DNA of 10,522 nucleotides from a virus. How positions within the stretch are numbered: position 1 is the stretch's first letter; the number at the start of each line of letters is the position of its first letter. The notes beneath the pieces are model-generated. The model saw nothing but the letters and a program-made list of their open reading frames with translations. It did not search any database and was not told where the DNA came from. Below, one piece after another: positions 1 to 10,426 of this stretch. The stretch lies in the UHGV virus genome UHGV-1718161, one strand, 5' to 3'. The position numbers and the translations under genes are program-made.

Positions 1-81
1 ACTCTTACCAGCAAACGCCCCTTTGTTGGGGTGTCGCCAGTACGTGTTCACGCTGGGCGGGAAAGGCAGGATCAGCTTCAT
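1..81 (-). CDS. rusA: RusA-family Holliday-junction resolvase, N-terminal 27 codons only (gene continues beyond the window start)
   Basis: Reverse complement of 1-81 reads ATG(81-79) MKLILPFPPSVNTYWRHPNKGAFAGKS. The L-P-x-P-P-S-x-N-x-Y-W-R pattern matches the N-terminal motif of RusA as I recall it (LPWPPSNNRYYR). The ATG overlaps the upstream stop (ATGA at 78-81), suggesting translational coupling. Too short to be certain. Confidence 0.45.
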   Translation of the reverse strand, partial: MKLILPFPPSVNTYWRHPNKGAFAGKS

Positions 82-404
82 ACTTTCAGGCCCCTCTCAT
101 GTAACCAGTGGGCTGCACGCAGCCTGGCGTTTTCCTCACCGACAAGCAGTGAGCGGATAATCCCGACCGCCTCGCTGTCGTCGTCCTTCACCGCGGTATG
201 AAGCGTGATGCCCCGGGCCACGCCACGCTTTATCGTGATGACGCCTTTTTTCTCCAGTGCGCGAAGATGCTCTACCGCTGCATTCACTGAACGGTATCCC
301 AGCATGGTTGCCACCTCCTGATTGGTTGGCGGAAAGCCACGCTCTTTCTGATAAGAAATCAGCATATCCAGCACCTGCTGCTGGCATTGAGTTAACGTCG
401 TCAT
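78..404 (-). CDS. LexA N-terminal DNA-binding-domain-like protein (winged HTH), no S24 peptidase domain
   Basis: ORF track 78..437 starts at a GTG; I prefer the in-frame ATG at 404-402 (MTTLTQCQQQVLDMLISYQKERGFPPTNQEVATMLGYRSVNAAVEHLRALEKKGVITI...). This aligns with the LexA N-terminus and recognition helix as I recall them (MKALTARQQEVFDLI...RSPNAAEEHLKALARKGVIEI). Only about 40 residues follow, so there is no cleavage/peptidase domain. TAATG overlap with the upstream gene stop. Confidence 0.6.
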   Translation of the reverse strand: MTTLTQCQQQVLDMLISYQKERGFPPTNQEVATMLGYRSVNAAVEHLRALEKKGVITIKRGVARGITLHTAVKDDDSEAVGIIRSLLVGEENARLRAAHWLHERGLKV

Positions 405-892
405 TACGCCCCCACGTAATTCCCTGACAGATACCACTCATCACTCGATACAGCGCGCTTGCTGCTTTTCCGTAAACACTGCTCACGACGCGCCAGAAAA
501 TTGTTTCGTTCTGGCTGGGAATGGCTTTCACGGAATGCCGCCATCCACACCGTTGCAGCACGACGGTATAAGCCCCTGGACTCCAGTTCTTCAGCCTGGC
601 GGGTCAGGCACAAAATCTCCCGCGGGTCGTTAGTGCCGACATAGAAATTGCGCACAGGTCTGGTTTCACGAACTGGTTGCGGTTCCGCCTCCTGCGCTCT
701 CTCAGTCAGGCGCGGGAAATGTCTGCGTGTATCCCCTTCACAACGGTGAGCCACACGACCACTCTGACGTAACTTGCTTGCTGACTGCAGAACGCGCTGC
801 CGTGAGTAACCTGCAAAAGCATCCGCAATGTCTCCGGAAGTACACCCCGGATGGGCTTCAATGTATTTCTGAACTTCATTCAAAAGACTCAT
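404..892 (-). CDS. small putative transcriptional regulator (winged-helix-like N-terminus, PerC/ANR-like C-terminal motif); function uncertain
   Basis: ORF track 404..898 begins at a GTG; the first ATG is at 892-890, preceded by GGGGG and lying 2 nt after the replication-gene stop. The C-terminal segment ...RGLYRRAATVWMAAF... resembles the RRAA-W motif of PerC/ANR-type regulators (recalled, weak). Confidence 0.5.
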   Translation of the reverse strand: MSLLNEVQKYIEAHPGCTSGDIADAFAGYSRQRVLQSASKLRQSGRVAHRCEGDTRRHFPRLTERAQEAEPQPVRETRPVRNFYVGTNDPREILCLTRQAEELESRGLYRRAATVWMAAFRESHSQPERNNFLARREQCLRKSSKRAVSSDEWYLSGNYVGA

Positions 893-894
893 GA

Positions 895-1836
895 TCACCC
901 CCTGAATCCTGCCGGGATCTGGCTGTAGTCCACGTTGTCGTAACTGGCTTTGAAGTACGGGTCTTCGCGTTTTTCGGTGTACGTGCTGACGGACGGCGAT
1001 AAGCGCAGGGAAAGCTCATCCCATTTTTCCCGCAGCTTCGACGGGCTGAGCACGTTACGGCACCAGAACGGATCGCGGCTGACGCGGCTGTACATCTCGC
1101 AGATTTGTTTGTGAGTACGACCATCCTGCACACACATCAGGCGAATTTCGTTTGCCCAGGCTGTCCAGTTCGGTTCTTTGGGACGAACCACCTCGCCGTC
1201 ACATTCGGCGGCCTGCTCGTACAGGGCGATGATTTTTTTCCAGAGCCACTGTGCGCAGGTCAAATCATCCTGCGTTCCCCACTGGCGCTTTTTAGGGCTG
1301 AATACAACCGCATTAGGATGGCGAGTTAAAAACTCCTGTTCAGCCGTCTGCGTGTCCGGTTGCGAAGCGTCCGGACGAGAAGTTTTTTTATCTGACGGAT
1401 CATGTTTTGATTTTACTGACGGATCCCCGCCAGATTCTGACGGGTGAAAACCCGCTTTTTTGCCAGATTTCGACGCATCAAATTTTGACGGGTCAGATTT
1501 TGATGCGTCAGATTTTGACGGGTCAGAATCTGACAATTGAGAAAATGCCGCTGCCTGAAGCTTCGCAACGTTAAGCTGATAAACATTCGACGCATTGCGG
1601 TTACCCTGGCGACGCGCCTTACGCGTTAACCAGCCTTCTGCTTCCAGCCGTGCGATAGCCGTTCTGACGGTACTCATCCCCGCGCCAATCTGACGGGCAA
1701 TGGTTTCAATTGATGGCCAGCACACACCTTCGTCATTACTGAAATCAGCCAGGCGGGCCATAATTGCCACGCTGGATAATTTCATGCCTGACGCAGCGCA
1801 ACCATCCCATACATAGCCGGTTAATTTAGTGCTCAT
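895..1836 (-). CDS. phage replication initiation protein (lambda O-like / replisome organizer) with internal origin iterons
   Basis: 313-aa ORF; ATG at 1836-1834 with GAGG upstream. N-terminal winged-HTH-like segment (SSVAIMARLADFSNDEGVCWPSIETIARQIGAGMSTVRTAIARLEAEGWL). Central low-complexity pentapeptide repeats (DPSKS/DASKS) are encoded by 15-bp DNA direct repeats, the arrangement lambda uses for ori inside O. Sits downstream of cro/CII as expected. Confidence 0.8.
   Translation of the reverse strand: MSTKLTGYVWDGCAASGMKLSSVAIMARLADFSNDEGVCWPSIETIARQIGAGMSTVRTAIARLEAEGWLTRKARRQGNRNASNVYQLNVAKLQAAAFSQLSDSDPSKSDASKSDPSKFDASKSGKKAGFHPSESGGDPSVKSKHDPSDKKTSRPDASQPDTQTAEQEFLTRHPNAVVFSPKKRQWGTQDDLTCAQWLWKKIIALYEQAAECDGEVVRPKEPNWTAWANEIRLMCVQDGRTHKQICEMYSRVSRDPFWCRNVLSPSKLREKWDELSLRLSPSVSTYTEKREDPYFKASYDNVDYSQIPAGFRG
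1431..1538. repeat. iteron array (about 6 tandem 15-16-bp direct repeats, consensus CAGATTTTGACGGGT) inside the replication gene; probable phage origin of replication
   Basis: Seen directly: cagattctgacgggtg (1431-1446), ccagatttcgacgcat (1463-1478), caaattttgacgggt (1479-1493), cagattttgatgcgt (1494-1508), cagattttgacgggt (1509-1523), cagaatctgacaatt (1524-1538). Degenerate CTGACGGAT copies lie at about 1391-1400 and 1416-1424. Confidence 0.65.
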
Positions 1837-1845
1837 GACCGACCT

Positions 1846-2184
1846 CTATTTCCCTGAATTTACGACGAAACTGTTCGAGCGGACTGAAGCATTCATGCTC
1901 ATAGCCTTCGCGGAGGTAGATAACCCGTTGTGTTTCCGGCTCCCAACGAATGACTCTGACGGGTACTCCGTAGTGATCTTTGAACCAGCGGTTAACTTGT
2001 CGCAAAGGACTGTCTCCTTTTGCCGGTTAAAATCACCCACAGCCCACTCTGCAAAGCTGTGGGTTACAATTACCCTGCCACCTGGTACATTTACTGCATA
2101 GCAATACTCCACCTTCGCTTTTCCACCCGGTACAGGAAGCGCAATCAGTTGCGAGCGACGGTAGTGTGTTGTTAAACTGTTCAT
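1846..2184 (-). CDS. hypothetical phage early protein (112 aa)
   Basis: ATG at 2184-2182 overlaps the stop of the upstream CII-like gene (ATGA), with GGAGAA 8 nt upstream. No family recognised. The plus-strand ORF 1829..2101 on the same DNA is rejected in its favour. Confidence 0.55.
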
Positions 2185-2732
2185 GCGTTAGTTTCTCCAC
2201 AGTCACGACACGCCACGGCGCCCGGAGCTGCACACTCGCGGGCGTCACTACTTTCTGAAACGCAAAAGATTTTGTAGACCAGAGCTGCATGCTCCTGCAG
2301 CTTCGAAATTGAGAGGTACAGCTCATCGTTAATTGCTGTCTTCTCATGCGGTTCCACTACACCGTCTTCAATTGCTGAACGAATCTGTCTGGAATAACTG
2401 CCGATCTGTTCAATGACTTCCAGCAGACGCTGGTTAATATCGGCATTGTCCACATCCTCGACGTCAGGAAGAGACACAAAGATGCCATTTGCAGACTGCG
2501 CCACAGCGTCAGCAATGAAGTGAGTTCCACCAGCACGTTGCAAAATCATTGCCCATCCCAGCGGGAAAATCTGATCGCCATCGGCACGAAGGCGGTTAAA
2601 TAATGCGTTCTCTGTTACGTCCAGCCAGTCAGCAGCTTCAGCGTAACCCCCCGGCAACGCTGCGATAGTTTTTCTGACAGCTTTCACGTACCACTCAGGC
2701 TGTTTTTCTACTTTCCAGTGATGCTTACCCAC
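2181..2732 (-). CDS. CII-like phage regulatory protein (phage 186 CII / CP76-type), 183 aa
   Basis: ORF track runs to 2843 but that would overlap cro. GTG at 2732-2730 with GAGGAG 6 nt upstream starts 29 nt after the cro stop. Residue pattern (...[21 protein letters not shown]...FIADAVAQ...) resembles the 186-type CII family as I remember it; family assignment is moderate. Confidence 0.6.
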
Positions 2733-2760
2733 GGTTAACTCCTCGTTTCTGTGGTTACGT

Positions 2761-3024
2761 TTACGCAGCTGAACCGCTAACTTTTGAATAGCACTCAGGT
2801 AATCCATCATTTGGATTGGGGTAAATATCAGGACGCAGTTCATGAGGGGTCACGGACCAGTTTCCCAACTCACAAAGTTGTAAAACCCGTTCTGACGGGA
2901 CTTGATTGTTAATTACCCAATTAGCGACGGATTGAGTGGACTTAAAACCAAAGTGACGGGCTACTTCAGATAAAGATTTTCCCGCAGCTTTTACTGCTTT
3001 CTCTGTGTAGTTTTGAGATGACAT
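2761..3024 (-). CDS. cro: Cro-like HTH regulator (YdaS/Cro family)
   Basis: 87-aa ORF divergent from the cI-like gene; ATG at 3024-3022 with GGAGGAG upstream. HTH segment (LSEVARHFGFKSTQSVANWV) and the ...ERVLQLCELGNWSVTPHELRPD... pattern typical of YdaS/Cro-type proteins (recalled). Confidence 0.8.
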   Translation of the reverse strand: MSSQNYTEKAVKAAGKSLSEVARHFGFKSTQSVANWVINNQVPSERVLQLCELGNWSVTPHELRPDIYPNPNDGLPECYSKVSGSAA

Positions 3025-3056: not shown

Positions 3057-3092
3057 CTACTTAAAATAGCAAAATGCAACTACTTAAAATAG
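3057..3092. promoter_or_regulatory. OR-like operator/promoter region between divergent cro and cI: two copies of the 13-bp site CTACTTAAAATAG
   Basis: Seen directly: ctacttaaaatag at 3057-3069 and again at 3080-3092 (centres 23 bp apart), in the 70-bp gap between the cro start (3024) and the cI start. Related 13-mers with the same CTA...TAG ends occur at 3893-3905 and 5305-5317. Confidence 0.5.
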
Positions 3093-3094
3093 AA

Positions 3095-3835
3095 ATGACT
3101 AGCGTATGTGATGCGAGTAATCTTCTACCTATGGTAGAAGAACAGAAGTATCCAGATTTCGCCAAGAGACTAAACGAGCTAATGACAAACAAGGGAATTT
3201 CTGTCACCCAACTCAAAAGTCTTGTGGGCGTTACATATGAAATGGCGCGGCGATACACAATCGGCGCTGCGAAGCCTCGTGCCTCTGTCATGAATAAACT
3301 TGCATTGGCTCTGGGGGTATCAGCTTCATATTTAGAATATGGTGTTGGCGAGAGAGAAGGATGTAAGGAAATGGCAAGCATCCCCAATCCAACAAAACCC
3401 GATGTATACAGGATAGAAGTTTTGGATCTTAGCGTTAGCGCAGGACCTGGGACCTATATGCTTTCAGACTATGTTGATGTGCTCTACGCCATTGAGTTCA
3501 CAACAGAGCATGCCCGTTCTCTTTTCGGTAATCGTTCTCAAGATGATATTAAAGTTATGACTGTAAATGGCGACAGCATGTCCCCTACTCTAGTTTCCGG
3601 AGATCGACTGTTTGTCGACATTTCTGTTCGCAACTTCCAAACTGATGGTGTTTACTCTTTCGTTTATGGTAAGACGTTCCACGTTAAACGTCTACAAATG
3701 CAAGGCAACAAACTCGCCGTTCTTTCGGATAATCCAGCCTATGAGAAATGGTACATTGATGAGAAGTCCCAAGATCAACTTTATGTTATGGGCAAAGCAT
3801 TGATACACGAATCAATTAAATACAACCGGCTTTAG
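3095..3835 (+). CDS. cI: cI-type prophage repressor (N-terminal XRE-family HTH, C-terminal LexA-like S24 peptidase domain)
   Basis: HTH (FAKRLNELMTNKGISVTQLKSLVGVTYEMARRY), S24 serine motif (VNGDSMSPTL) and downstream catalytic Lys (FHVKRL). Start is ambiguous: the ORF-track ATG at 3074 lies between the two operator copies, so I prefer ATG 3095 (leaderless-style); ATG 3131 is also possible. Stop TAG 3833-3835. Confidence 0.85.
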   Translation: MTSVCDASNLLPMVEEQKYPDFAKRLNELMTNKGISVTQLKSLVGVTYEMARRYTIGAAKPRASVMNKLALALGVSASYLEYGVGEREGCKEMASIPNPTKPDVYRIEVLDLSVSAGPGTYMLSDYVDVLYAIEFTTEHARSLFGNRSQDDIKVMTVNGDSMSPTLVSGDRLFVDISVRNFQTDGVYSFVYGKTFHVKRLQMQGNKLAVLSDNPAYEKWYIDEKSQDQLYVMGKALIHESIKYNRL

Positions 3836-4006: not shown

Positions 4007-5083
4007 ATGACAAAATCAATTTGTTTTTTTAATCATAAAGGTGGGGTAAGTAAAACCACAACAACCTTCAATCTTGGATGGGCACTTGCGGATGAAGGCA
4101 AGAAAGTATTGATGGTTGACCTTGATTCGCAATGTAATCTAACAGGAATGGTTCTTGGCTATGAAAAGATTGATGAGGGTTTAGATTCTTTTTATTCTAG
4201 CAGAGATAACTTAACTCTTGGACCTATTGTAGAATATTTGATTAATGGCGGACAACCTGAAGCATACCTTGAAAAAGAAACGGGAAAATTACACCCTACA
4301 CTGCATGAAAACCTTCTGCTTCTTCCCGGACATTTAGATGTTTCGGACTTAGATTCACAGATAAGTGTTTCTCTAAAAATTGCTGCTGGTATTCCTGCTA
4401 CAAGAAATATACCAGGGAACCTGCCAAAAATATTACAGCTAATCGCCTTGAAGAATAATATTGATTACATTCTTTATGATCTCAGCCCTAATGTTGGAGG
4501 TTTAAATGAAGTAGTTCTCATGTCAAGTGACTATTTTATCGTACCTGTAGCTCCAGACTTTTTTTGCTGGCAAGCAATTCGCTCTCTCTCAAAAAATATA
4601 CCTCGCTGGCACAAAGAATTAGCATTATTTAAAGAAAATAATGATGGTAACTCTTCACAATCAATTAAAAATGCACCGCAGTTTCTAGGTATGATTCAGC
4701 AGAGATACAGGCCGCGTAAAGGAGCACCTGTAAAATCTTTCGAAAAATGGATGGCAGCTATCCGTGATGCTGTTGATTCGATCTTAGTGCCAAATCTAGA
4801 AAAAATTACCTGCATAATTCCACGAGATAAAGTGCAACATGCAATTAACAAAACAACAGTCAGTGGAGATTTATCAGCCTATGATCTTGCGCATATTTCC
4901 GATTTCAACTCATTAATCGCAATAAGCCAACAACTAGCGACACCTGTTTTCTCCATCAGTGATCAGCAAATTCGCGATTCAGGGCAATTTGGGCATGCCT
5001 TAAATACAATGAAATCAAGCAGAGACGCCTTTAACGAACAATTTAAAGGGCTGGCTCAACGAGTTCTAGAACTTACAAAGTAA
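4007..5083 (+). CDS. ParA/MinD-superfamily ATPase with a roughly 120-aa C-terminal extension (358 aa); candidate lysogen-expressed exclusion/defence protein
   Basis: Deviant Walker A NHKGGVSKTT (res 9-18), ParA-type LMVDLDSQCNL, Walker-B-like ILYDLSP. AAGGA/GAGAAA RBS before ATG 4007. Sits in a visibly AT-rich segment directly downstream of cI in the same orientation and is followed by an intrinsic terminator. No ParB-like partner ORF or parS-like repeats nearby. Confidence 0.85.
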   Translation: MTKSICFFNHKGGVSKTTTTFNLGWALADEGKKVLMVDLDSQCNLTGMVLGYEKIDEGLDSFYSSRDNLTLGPIVEYLINGGQPEAYLEKETGKLHPTLHENLLLLPGHLDVSDLDSQISVSLKIAAGIPATRNIPGNLPKILQLIALKNNIDYILYDLSPNVGGLNEVVLMSSDYFIVPVAPDFFCWQAIRSLSKNIPRWHKELALFKENNDGNSSQSIKNAPQFLGMIQQRYRPRKGAPVKSFEKWMAAIRDAVDSILVPNLEKITCIIPRDKVQHAINKTTVSGDLSAYDLAHISDFNSLIAISQQLATPVFSISDQQIRDSGQFGHALNTMKSSRDAFNEQFKGLAQRVLELTK

Positions 5084-5090
5084 TGCATGT

Positions 5091-5127
5091 GCCCGGCCGC
5101 ATAACCGGGCTTTACTCTTCTTTCTCC
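5091..5127 (+). terminator. rho-independent terminator after the ParA-like gene
   Basis: GCCCGG (5091-5096), loop ccgcataa, CCGGGC (5105-5110), followed by a T-rich tract tttactcttctttct. Confidence 0.6.
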
Positions 5128-5268
5128 CTGATTAATCTCATAAAAAACTCCCTCCTCATAATTCACTATGCTCAATACCTACTCCAACTTCGTGCGATAT
5201 TTTCAGTTTACAGCATAGTAAATCAGCAAAAACATTTAACTTTCAATTAATTATAGAAAAATCATAGA

Positions 5269-5326
5269 CAACAACAAATATCTACTTTTTGTTGTTGATT
5301 TTTGCTACTTTAAGTAGCAACATAAT
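5269..5326 (+). promoter_or_regulatory. pL/OL-like regulatory region: two adjacent palindromes plus a -10-like CATAAT
   Basis: Inverted repeat caacaacaaa (5269-5278) / tttgttgttg (5288-5297). Perfect 19-bp palindrome ttgctacttTaagtagcaa (5302-5320) containing the operator-like 13-mer CTACTTTAAGTAG (5305-5317). CATAAT at 5321-5326, TTGATT at 5295-5300 (spacing not ideal). Position mirrors lambda oL/pL after the rex slot. Confidence 0.35.
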
Positions 5327-5404
5327 GTAAGCTATCACGGACAGGCAGGACGCCCACGAAGTAGCCTCCTGGGACATATGAAGTCCAGGATGATTCGTTA
5401 GCAA

Positions 5405-5428
5405 CAAAAAAGCGCCCTACAGGACGCT
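5405..5428 (-). terminator. rho-independent terminator of the minus-strand 173-aa gene
   Basis: On the minus strand: AGCGTCC-TGTA-GGGCGCT (7-bp stem with one G-U pair) followed by TTTTTTGTTGC, about 40 nt after the stop at 5471. Confidence 0.55.
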
Positions 5429-5430
5429 TA

Positions 5431-5443
5431 GCTCTTTAACAAT
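5431..5443 (+). promoter_or_regulatory. boxA-like antitermination motif (GCTCTTTAACAAT), rrn/phage-21-type
   Basis: Plus-strand gcttaGCTCTTTAACAATctggg matches the rrn boxA core TGCTCTTTAACAA and resembles the phage 21 nut boxA as I recall it. Lies about 110 nt downstream of the pL-like palindrome and 2 nt after a hairpin (boxB-before-boxA order, as in rrn leaders). Confidence 0.4.
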
Positions 5444-5470
5444 CTGGGTATCATCCAACCAATGCAAGAT

Positions 5471-5992
5471 TTAAGGAATCCAAGGCGAATTCAGATCTCG
5501 CCCCAACTCACGTAATGATCTTGGTCGTTCGTACATCGGATTTTTTTCCATAAGAAATTTATTTTCACAGTGAAGGCAACGGCTTGTAAGAAAATGAGAA
5601 GTTTTACCTACTGGAAGCGGATGAAGTATCGATTTTATATTTTTGGAATAACAAAGTGGGCACAGATGCACAGTTATTTCTTTTCCACTCACAATTTCAT
5701 TTTTAGAGTAAACAAAAGCACCAGAGTCAAGCTGATCAAGGACATATCCTTCTACCTTGGCACAAAAATCTTCAAACTCTGCAATTTTTGCTTTGAGATG
5801 CATCACCTCTTCATCACGAAGGCGGATCGCATCGCCAAGAGAGAAGCATTCTGCCTGAAGCGTGATTAGTTTGTTCTGGAGTTCAATGGTTGCAGCTTTA
5901 ACTTCTGCATCCGTTTTCGCGTCATTAATAACCTTAGCAAGACCGGCAGTCTCCTTTATAGCGGCCATAGCCGCAGACAGTTCAGCTATCAC
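5471..5992 (-). CDS. hypothetical coiled-coil protein with a C-terminal C4 zinc ribbon (173 aa)
   Basis: N-terminal 80 residues are Ala/Lys/Glu-rich and helical; CPLC (111-114) and CLHC (139-142) form CxxC-x24-CxxC. ORF-track start is a GTG at 5992; the first ATG is at 5968-5966, neither with a strong SD. Own terminator downstream. Antisense plus-strand ORFs (5570..5869, 5862..6056) look like low-complexity shadows. Confidence 0.7.
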   Translation of the reverse strand: MIAELSAAMAAIKETAGLAKVINDAKTDAEVKAATIELQNKLITLQAECFSLGDAIRLRDEEVMHLKAKIAEFEDFCAKVEGYVLDQLDSGAFVYSKNEIVSGKEITVHLCPLCYSKNIKSILHPLPVGKTSHFLTSRCLHCENKFLMEKNPMYERPRSLRELGRDLNSPWIP

Positions 5993-6008
5993 GTTGAATA
6001 CTCAGCTA

Positions 6009-6052
6009 GTTGTTGGGGATATCCAGATTAACCAAATCCTTGTTGTTGGGGA
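6009..6052. repeat. two direct copies of GTTGTTGGGGA flanked by CTAG, in the promoter region of the 173-aa gene
   Basis: gttgttgggga at 6009-6019 (followed by tat) and at 6042-6052 (followed by ata), 33 bp apart; ctag at 6005-6008 and 6057-6060. Confidence 0.45.
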
Positions 6053-6461
6053 ATAACTAGGTCCACCTCGCCTGATGTGGCTAAAAGCAGGCACATAACA
6101 GCTAAGTATTTTCAACCAGAGAGAATCCTTAGCGTTGTGGTGAATGCGGCTCAGCGCACGCGGGTTAAGGTTGAGGCTGACAGTCGACCTTCTGTGGATA
6201 CCCACCCGCCTGGTGTGCAACCTTCGCCAGGCACCGGGAGGCACCCGGCACCACAACTTTATGCTGTGTGTAGTCCTGGCGGTATCAGCTTGTACCCTTG
6301 CTTCCGGCTGGTACCGTCCTTTTTACAAAACAGAGAAGAGTATCACCGGACGACGGGCTCATAACCCAATCCATCCGGGCGGCTGCCACCGCAGGTGTTC
6401 TTCTCTGTTTTGTGGAGAAACCAACCGACCTTGCAGGGTCGATATGATGGGGAGCAGCAAA

Positions 6462-9386: not shown

Positions 9387-10426
9387 AGGCTGAAGCATGG
9401 CGGGTCAGCAAACTTGGTGAAATACCTGATATAACGTTCGAGGAAGCGTGTATCAGGTGGCTTGAAGAGAAAGCACATAAAAAATCACTGGACGATGACA
9501 AAAGCCGGATCGGATTCTGGCTTCAACATTTCGCAGGAATGCAACTAAGAGACATTACTGAATCAAAAATTTATTCAGCAATGCAGAAAATGACGAACCG
9601 GCGTCATGAGGAAAACTGGAAACTCAGGACAGAAGCATGCAGAAAAAAAGGGAAACCTGTTCCAGAATACACGCCAAAACCAGCGTCCGTTGCAACGAAG
9701 GCTACGCATCTTTCATTTATAAAAGCCCTACTAAGAGCCGCAGAGCGTGAATGGAAAATGCTGGATAAGGCACCAATTATTAAAGTGCCTCAACCAAAGA
9801 ATAAACGGATCCGCTGGCTGGAGCCCCATGAAGCACAAAGGCTGATTGATGAATGTCCGGAGCCATTAAAGTCTGTTGTTGAATTTGCACTGGCAACAGG
9901 CTTAAGACGCTCGAACATCATCAACCTTGAATGGCAACAAATAGACATGCAGCGCCGGGTGGCATGGATAAACCCGGAAGAGAGTAAATCAAACCGCGCA
10001 ATTGGCGTTGCGCTGAATGATACTGCATGTCGCGTTTTGAAAAAACAAATCGGGAATCATCACCGTTGGGTATTTGTGTACAAGGAAAGCTGTACCAAAC
10101 CAGACGGAACGAAAGCGCCAACAGTAAGGAAGATGCGGTATGACGCAAACACAGCCTGGAAAGCGGCGCTGAGACGGGCTGGTATTGATGATTTCAGATT
10201 TCACGACTTGAGACACACCTGGGCAAGTTGGCTGGTTCAAGCCGGAGTCCCGTTGTCAGTGTTACAGGAAATGGGAGGCTGGGAGTCTATCGAAATGGTT
10301 CGTCGATATGCTCACCTTGCACCTAATCACCTTACCGAACACGCACGGCAAATAGACTCGATCCTGAACCCATCGGTCCCAAATTCGTCCCAGTCAAAAA
10401 ATAAGGAAGGTACTAATGATGTGTAA
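9263..10426 (+). CDS. int: tyrosine-family site-specific integrase (P22 Int-like, 387 aa)
   Basis: GAGGAA RBS before ATG 9263. Catalytic signature: R in ATGLRRSN, H-x-x-R in [11 protein letters not shown], Tyr in VRRYAHL. Near-identical to my memory of P22 integrase, which uses thrW. Ends 14 bp before the tRNA 3' end. Confidence 0.95.

Follow-up and report, generated by a model that had tools for sequence, protein, structure and literature searches.

The left end of the DNA analyzed here, a 10,522-nt stretch of the UHGV virus genome UHGV-1718161 (hereafter the window, meaning the whole stretch), carries on its minus strand a gene for a protein of 108 amino acids (aa). This protein contains a bona fide LexA DNA-binding domain and is not LexA proper, because both the protease domain and the cleavage site are missing. 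It is best explained as a small phage transcription factor in which a LexA-type winged helix is joined by a flexible hinge to a conserved tail of two helices. Tentatively, we read it as a RecA-insensitive DNA binder of the SOS-box type, which would be made early in lytic growth and would re-impose LexA-type repression. New in this work are the observations that the tail is retained in relatives of 40-60% identity and that many of these lie behind canonical SOS boxes, often in one operon with dinI, which places the family among the SOS-controlled genes of the phage. The gene and the parts of its product are as follows.

78-404, minus strand: LexA-like coding sequence, 108 aa, from the list of open reading frames (ORFs); ATG at 402-404, TGA at 78-80
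201-404, minus strand: LexA-type winged helix-turn-helix (HTH) domain, residues 1-68, defined by PF01726, BLASTP and the structure model
243-293, minus strand: recognition helix and turn into the wing, residues 38-54, RSVNAAVEHLRALEKKG, which aligns with LexA RSPNAAEEHLKALARKG
183-200, minus strand: flexible hinge, residues 69-74, with a low predicted local distance difference test score (pLDDT) and a length that varies among relatives
81-182, minus strand: family-specific two-helix tail, residues 75-108, with helices at 74-87 and 93-103

The full protein sequence is MTTLTQCQQQVLDMLISYQKERGFPPTNQEVATMLGYRSVNAAVEHLRALEKKGVITIKRGVARGITLHTAVKDDDSEAVGIIRSLLVGEENARLRAAHWLHERGLKV. A GTG start at 437, which would give 119 aa, was dropped in favor of the ATG at 404, the start shared by LexA, all homologs, and RefSeq.

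The LexA-Type DNA-Binding Domain

The homology is specific to LexA and extends over its whole DNA-binding domain, in sequence and in fold. The Pfam family LexA_DNA_bind (PF01726) matched residues 1-65 along positions 1-65 of its 65-position profile with 69 bits (cutoff 23.7; E=2.9e-19), and the second-best HTH family in the Pfam search fell under its own cutoff. BLASTP aligned the phage protein with residues 1-68 of E. coli LexA without a gap, at 35/68 identities (51%). A phmmer search of the Protein Data Bank (PDB) matched nine chains at E=7e-16 to 1e-5, all of which are LexA. The predicted domain, with helices at residues 6-22, 28-35, and 40-52 and strands at 56-59 and 65-68, lies 1.4 A from PDB 3jso. 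A preliminary description of this DNA had picked out the same ORF, with exact coordinates, for a recognition-helix region like that of LexA, which corresponds to residues 38-54. The LexA peptide that it quoted is correct and is present in the aligned PDB chains. The similarity is also not limited to a generic winged helix, a reservation made in that description, since the full PF01726 profile is covered, the alignment is gapless and the PDB matches are all LexA.

LexA is reported to contact the CTGT half-site of its operator through Ser39, Asn41, Ala42, Glu44, and Glu45 (PMC3091678; PMC13416735). Four of these five residues (Ser39, Asn41, Ala42, and Glu45) are kept in the alignment and Glu44 is replaced by Val, while Lys53, Gly54, Arg64, Gly65, and Ile66 of the wing are in common with LexA. 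The recognition helix thus reads SVNAAVEHL in the window protein and SPNAAEEHL in LexA, a difference at two positions, and the commonest helix of the short family, SPNAAAEHL, differs from LexA at one. Residues 38-54 are nearly invariant across the E. coli clade.

Loss of the Protease Domain and a Family-Specific Tail

The protein ends 40 residues beyond the domain. The Pfam search of the 108-aa protein gave no match to Peptidase_S24 (PF00717), and the TIGR00498 lexA equivalog was matched over positions 1-91 of 203 only, with a score of 67.8 that lies below the cutoff of 110.95. Past the hinge, the alignment with LexA contains no counterpart of the Ala84-Gly85 cleavage site or of the Ser119-Lys156 dyad. 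The structural basis for RecA*-stimulated autocleavage is absent from the sequence, and a protein with neither cleavage site nor S24 domain should not be open to inactivation by RecA* as LexA is. The preliminary description had likewise noted that the protein stops with no S24 domain and could therefore be uncleavable, and both points are supported.

In the structure model the pLDDT is below 50 at residues 71-74 of the hinge and about 60-66 in the flanking blocks, and it reaches 88-89 for the residue blocks 81-90 and 91-100 in the tail. The predicted template modeling score (pTM) of 0.55 fits two independent modules, given the confident tail and the disordered hinge. When 1.84 billion representatives were searched exhaustively with HMMER, the relatives recovered included short, tail-bearing proteins of 38-51% identity (for example, P0123, P0125, P0128, P0131, P0136, P0164, P0177, P0242, and P0250). 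Five residues of the tail (Leu86, Leu87, Ala93, Ala97, and Leu101) never vary in the alignment of the E. coli clade; for Ala97 and Leu101 this holds down to 38% identity, and the tail pattern can still be seen in relatives of 38-48% identity. Comparison with solved structures revealed nothing that resembles the tail. A derivation of the tail from the C-terminus of LexA was considered and rejected: the similarity between AVGIIRS and AVGVIRN reaches only E=0.39 in BLASTP, the placement of the tail on LexA 140-163 by MAFFT is not significant, and helices in the model stand against strands in LexA.

LexA dimerizes via its C-terminal domain, as seen in the structures 1JHH and 3JSO, and we infer that the tail stands in for this domain as the dimerization element. 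Five other proteins (P0130, P0148, P0153, P0154, and P0158) each contain two tandem PF01726 stretches and no S24 domain. These may be single-chain "dimers," an alternative answer to the lost dimerization domain.

SOS Boxes Around the Gene and Its Relatives

SOS boxes were searched for with a 20-bp weight matrix derived from 19 boxes of E. coli, and the matrix passed a check by recovering the real dinB operator in the prophage locus L126. The lineage of P0136 is represented by 34 IMG/VR loci of 45-97% identity. In 26/34 of these loci a box of 17.5-29 bits is located between -437 and -689 bp relative to the gene; two further loci have it at -1465, and nine carry one more at about -1120 to -1170. 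Altogether the lineage contains 42 sites of at least 18 bits, compared with 0-1 in shuffled sequences, and within the boxes the CTGT and ACAG arms are conserved and the spacer is variable.

Three loci (L114, L007, and L011) have a terminator followed by a good sigma-70 promoter, whose -10 element is overlapped or abutted by the box. The L114 box (5320-5339) immediately follows TTGAAC-N17-TATACT, and the operon behind it (5359-6327) consists, after promoter and box, of dinI (PF06183, E=1e-23), a 101-aa ORF, and the LexA-like gene. The order in L007 (box at 5560-5579) and L011 (box at 5561-5580) is terminator, promoter and box, small ORF, LexA-like gene, and RusA. The link of the family to the SOS system, which had been suggested from the recognition helix, is reinforced by these relatives in operons behind canonical SOS boxes, often together with dinI. 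DinI is a known modulator of RecA.

Several features of these loci are worth recording. The loci L092-L118, which belong to a sister lineage, generally have the order box promoter, dinI, 75-101-aa ORF, LexA-like gene, an occasional 67-aa ORF, RusA or DUF968, and Q. The small 75-101-aa ORF of the SOS-box operon matched no family in Pfam. At 4837-4856, L114 has another perfect SOS box, TACTGTATATATATACAGTA, ahead of a 109-aa ORF (4877-5206) whose N-terminus, GFPSPAKDYAEQ, is UmuD'-like (pairwise E=1e-7) and in which the motif of the Ser nucleophile is replaced; from its sequence, this ORF may encode an inactive UmuD-like protein.

The prophages of the E. coli clade that carry the gene contain 54 strong boxes in 1.27 Mb, compared with 0-2 in shuffled sequences. 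Strong boxes are carried by 49/79 loci, in places other than ahead of the gene: some lie within the gene for the cI-like repressor, others in the gap that separates rusA from a KilA-N gene, and others in codons 3-9 of an N6_N4 DNA methyltransferase gene. The methyltransferase box, TACTGTAAAAATAAACAGTG, is at the 5' end of this gene, which lies downstream of Q and before the lysis genes. In each of the two closest complete prophages it is the single strong box, with 22.6 bits (L001, 7839-7858; L126, 7747-7766). The methyltransferase 5' end is present in 28 phage records, 27 of which also carry the LexA-like gene.

Methyltransferase-end boxes are also present in L002 (SfV; 9907-9926) and L011 (8739-8758), and over the four loci they score 20.6-22.6 bits. 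In the E. coli-clade copies the box spans codons 3-9 (MKNTVKINS), whereas L011 has it 24 bp ahead of the called start. The slot between Q and the lysis genes is the position of the stx genes in Stx phages. Near-perfect boxes of 25-27 bits lie inside the S24-type cI-like genes of many E. coli prophages, in the linker between HTH and protease (for example, L014 5643-5662, in a minus-strand gene at 5179-5871, and L003 836-855). Some E. coli-clade prophages have a box in the gap between rusA and KilA-N (L086, 10765-10784), ~100 bp ahead of the gene with the KilA-N domain, an arrangement that resembles the LexA-controlled antirepressors of Gifsy-type phages. The corresponding gap in L001 and L126 is just 19 bp and has no box.

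Distribution, Selection and Annotation

Over its first 2200 bases, the window matches a prophage of E. coli CREC-629 at 100% identity; the gene is annotated there as WP_000210173.1, "LexA family transcriptional regulator." The gene was found in 2233/5426 complete E. coli genomes (~41%), with up to four copies per genome, and 50 phage records contain it as well, with DNA identities of 95-99%. Phage carriers include SfV (orf42), SfII, SfIV, mEp460, cdtI, 1720a-02, and the Stx2a-, Stx2c-, and Stx2k-converting phages, and the protein is 95-99% identical to its homologs in SfV (orf42), mEp460, cdtI, and Stx2 phages. PHROG 362, a phage "transcriptional repressor" family, was matched over the full length (E=5.4e-59; residues 1-108 on positions 1-106 of 106). 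The family is therefore already known by annotation, and the PHROG 362 and NCBI names are based on similarity. Among 79 IMG/VR prophage copies, 51 DNA alleles encode 13 protein variants, with a ratio of nonsynonymous to synonymous polymorphism (pN/pS) of 0.05. Such strong purifying selection indicates a functional gene.

One carrier, 1720a-02 (KF030445.1), is the Stx "bully phage" of a preprint, which makes no mention of its LexA-domain gene; according to its authors, the phage uses Cro to block the induction of phiNP, a co-resident prophage (bioRxiv 10.1101/2025.01.01.630987). The 5' region of the phiNP methyltransferase gene is 88% identical to the SOS-box-bearing one.

The Early Operon and Its Neighborhood

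The genes of the window that surround the LexA-like gene are listed here.

1-81, minus strand: 5' end of rusA (Holliday-junction resolvase), from the RefSeq annotation of identical DNA; the rest of the gene lies beyond the left window edge
404-898, minus strand: PerC/YfdN-like regulator gene, 164 aa (PF06069 PerC, E=7.5e-10; RefSeq yfdN)
895-1836, minus strand: O-like replication initiator (Pfam, PHROG)
1826-2005, minus strand: DUF4222 gene (Pfam, PHROG)
2181-2843, minus strand: CII-like gene (Pfam, PHROG)
2761-3024, minus strand: Cro/YdaS-like gene (Pfam, PHROG)
3074-3835, plus strand, divergent from the early operon: S24-type cI-like repressor (Pfam, PHROG)

The genes from the Cro-like to the LexA-like one follow each other head to tail on the minus strand, overlapping or abutting, and a simple scan between cro and the LexA-like gene detected no promoter-like or terminator-like site on this strand. 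The LexA-like gene is therefore the sixth gene in the early rightward operon of a lambdoid prophage. It is translationally coupled to the genes on both sides: the TAA of the PerC-like gene and the ATG of the LexA-like gene share base 404 in TAATG (402-406), and the ATG of rusA (79-81) overlaps the LexA-like TGA (78-80) as ATGA. The prophage is integrated at tRNA-Thr, beside proA.

The PerC/YfdN-like protein has its PerC domain at the C-terminus and a winged-helix-like part at the N-terminus; the PerC family comprises activators of the virulence genes of the locus of enterocyte effacement (LEE). A dam methylase gene of ~650 bp lies between the PerC-like and LexA-like genes in SfV and BS90R-A and is not found in the window. 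Two further genes of the window separate the cI-like repressor gene from yfdP-T: one encodes a ParA-family ATPase (4007-5083, plus strand), and the other is a 173-aa ORF with Cys-rich motifs (5471-5992, minus strand). For a lambdoid prophage that is integrated, ParA is unusual, and it is missing from the prophage of CREC-629.

The loci of six relatives with 38-48% identity were read, and each is a lambdoid prophage in which the gene has the replication genes on one side and Q on the other. In all six, RusA comes next, with at most one small ORF in between, and DUF968 lies downstream wherever the contig extends far enough. This placement is the same with different replication modules (O-like, DUF1376 plus lambda-P, and DnaT plus DnaC). 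Synteny between the replication genes and RusA/DUF968/Q extends to L003-L011, SfV, CREC-629, and BS90R-A. In L114-type loci there is no adjacent RusA, and a 67-aa ORF followed by DUF968 is found instead; the link to RusA is thus not obligatory. A search of viral contigs for loci related to P0242 found none.

Possible Functions of the Protein

If the tentative reading as a re-imposed LexA-type repressor is right, a dimer held together by the tail would bind SOS-box-like palindromes of the CTGT-N8-ACAG type and, having neither cleavage site nor protease, would be immune to RecA*. The protein would be made only when the early operon fires, at a time when the phage repressor is gone and host LexA has typically been destroyed, and repression would be restored at LexA-controlled promoters. 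The first targets would likely be SOS-box genes of the phage itself: in the E. coli clade the methyltransferase gene that follows Q, and in relatives dinI operons and antirepressor-like genes of the KilA-N type. Beyond these, the protein might also act on SOS genes of the host and on functions that LexA controls in co-resident prophages. That a lone DNA-binding domain can repress is known from the isolated N-terminal fragments of LexA and CI, which stay active repressors unless they are cleared by ClpX(P) (PMC10584840; PMC3159453).

A number of observations weigh against this reading. The window itself contains no SOS box, the best matrix score being 6.9 bits, and its five CTGT-N8-ACAG matches with up to one mismatch are at chance level (3.25 expected); a single exact match, at 3561-3576 within the cI-like gene, was rejected as an SOS box at 6.2 bits. 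In the E. coli clade, 30/79 loci have no strong box within the fetched DNA, and the co-occurrence of the methyltransferase box with the LexA-like gene was not counted as a separate line of evidence, since only 4-5 kb lies between the two and linkage can account for it. More generally, host LexA explains the boxes equally well, so that they do not prove binding by the phage protein. Position 44 is Val, Ala, Phe, or Tyr across the short family and never acidic, and the helices SPNAVALHL and SQNTVFIHL lack Glu45, yet stand behind perfect SOS boxes; from this it can be argued that the boxes serve host LexA and that the targets of the phage proteins may differ. The monomeric LexA domain binds operators only weakly, and dimerization through the tail is itself an inference. 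The literature search found no experimental study of this protein or its family.

These points bear directly on a second explanation, according to which the domain has drifted to a private, non-SOS operator and times phage genes as activator or repressor, apart from the SOS regulon. Its model is gp6 of the Bacillus phage GIL01, a truncated phage LexA homolog in which both the site and the sign of regulation have changed: gp6 binds its own palindrome, which overlaps the -35 element of the late promoter P3, and activates transcription (PMC6182141). GIL01 gp6 is the nearest characterized functional analog of the window protein; each is the product of an early gene of a temperate phage and is essentially a LexA DNA-binding domain that lacks the part responsible for autocleavage. 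The variability of the base-contacting positions 41, 42, 44, and 45 in the short family is in line with such a drift, as is the boxless window, and the absence of an acidic residue at position 44 together with the occasional loss of Glu45 means that DNA specificity may have shifted as in gp6. The two proteins differ in several ways, however. Gp6 has 66 aa and no tail, and its helix, SHKTAHRYL, is far more distant from that of LexA than is SVNAAVEHL. No BLASTP alignment with gp6 (AJ536073 ORF6) was obtained at E values up to 100, and the global MAFFT alignment gave 33% identity. As no relation is detectable beyond the shared domain, the two genes are independent captures from different LexA lineages, and the analogy is convergent. 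The site and the activator role of gp6 have been demonstrated, whereas the window protein is known here from its sequence. Moreover, no alternative conserved operator was found in a search that was not exhaustive, and Q, located downstream in these prophages, already handles lambdoid late transcription. A private operator is a possibility to be taken seriously, if a rather doubtful one.

It is improbable that the protein is an accessory of DNA metabolism, which would work with RusA, DUF968 (HNH-like), or replication functions, for example by targeting them to phage DNA or restraining them there. The stop/start overlap with rusA in the window, the proximity of RusA in all six loci of relatives with any replication module, and the constant position between the replication genes and DUF968/Q would all be accounted for. 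On the other hand, RusA is not adjacent in L114-type loci, the fold is that of a sequence-specific repressor with a conserved recognition helix, and adjacency here is often mere mosaic linkage of lambdoid genomes.

The preliminary description had proposed that the protein might heterodimerize with host LexA; more broadly, it could be a poison subunit or co-repressor that alters DNA binding or cleavage of LexA. The tail has no assigned partner, and GIL01 gp7, a small phage protein that modulates LexA, provides a precedent (PMC6182141; PMC4551915). Gp7 is not a LexA homolog, though, and the conservation of the recognition helix would be left unexplained. The LexA dimer interface sits in the C-terminal domain that is missing here, which makes heterodimerization unlikely, and the similarity of the tail to LexA is insignificant, as described above. 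The interpretation in the preliminary description is thus supported in part, as regards specific LexA homology, the lack of autocleavage and a link to the SOS system, and a partnership with LexA in any form is very improbable. That the gene is a functionless, decaying remnant of a captured lexA, as its likeness to LexA minus the C-terminal two thirds might suggest, can be practically dismissed: it is refuted by the low pN/pS over 51 alleles, and conservation of both length and tail reaches to relatives of 38% identity, in a gene that is widespread in E. coli genomes and present in the functional phages SfV, mEp460, cdtI, and Stx2a/Stx2c.

Relation to LexA, Its Fragments, and PHROG 362

Compared with E. 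coli LexA (1LEA, 1JHH, and 3JSO), the protein shares the fold of the N-terminal domain at the identity given above, and it differs in having Val for Glu44 and a 34-residue two-helix tail in place of the C-terminal domain. Its gene belongs to an early lytic operon, whereas lexA is an autoregulated SOS gene. The protein also resembles the N-terminal fragments that LexA and CI leave after cleavage, which are lone DNA-binding domains with repressor activity if not removed (PMC10584840). These fragments are transient, being cleared by ClpX(P) (PMC3159453), whereas the phage protein is genetically encoded and has its own conserved tail. The C-terminus of the phage protein is not VAA. This motif reportedly marks the LexA fragment for ClpX, and the phage protein presumably does without the degradation signal of that fragment. 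PHROG 362 members share the full-length match, the conserved tail, and the gene position, and no sequence difference sets the window protein apart from this family. The features of possible interest may be the recognition helix, which is close to that of LexA with a systematic loss of Glu44, and the family-specific tail.

Implications

An extension of the preferred reading, which we regard as unlikely, is that a very common prophage gene of enterobacteria, carried also by serotype-converting phages of Shigella, encodes an uncleavable LexA mimic that re-closes the SOS promoters opened by RecA* once lytic growth starts. Such a protein would shut off the host SOS response and silence LexA-controlled antirepressors or lysis genes of competitors (other prophages and colicin plasmids), and in other lineages it would act with DinI in an SOS-induced "SOS shut-off" cassette.

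If the protein does occupy SOS boxes uncleavably, many prophages of E. coli, Shigella, and Shiga toxin-producing E. coli (STEC) would be able to switch off the DNA-damage response during induction. This would bear on the timing of Shiga-toxin phage induction and on competition among co-resident prophages, as well as on SOS-dependent mutagenesis and antibiotic tolerance in lysogens, and the family would represent a natural experiment in which a LexA recognition helix tolerates the loss of Glu44. If instead the protein has its own operator, it would be the second independent case, after GIL01 gp6, of a LexA DNA-binding head turned into a private phage regulator. The gene is cheap to test, and the context of SOS boxes and dinI operons supplies concrete candidate operators.

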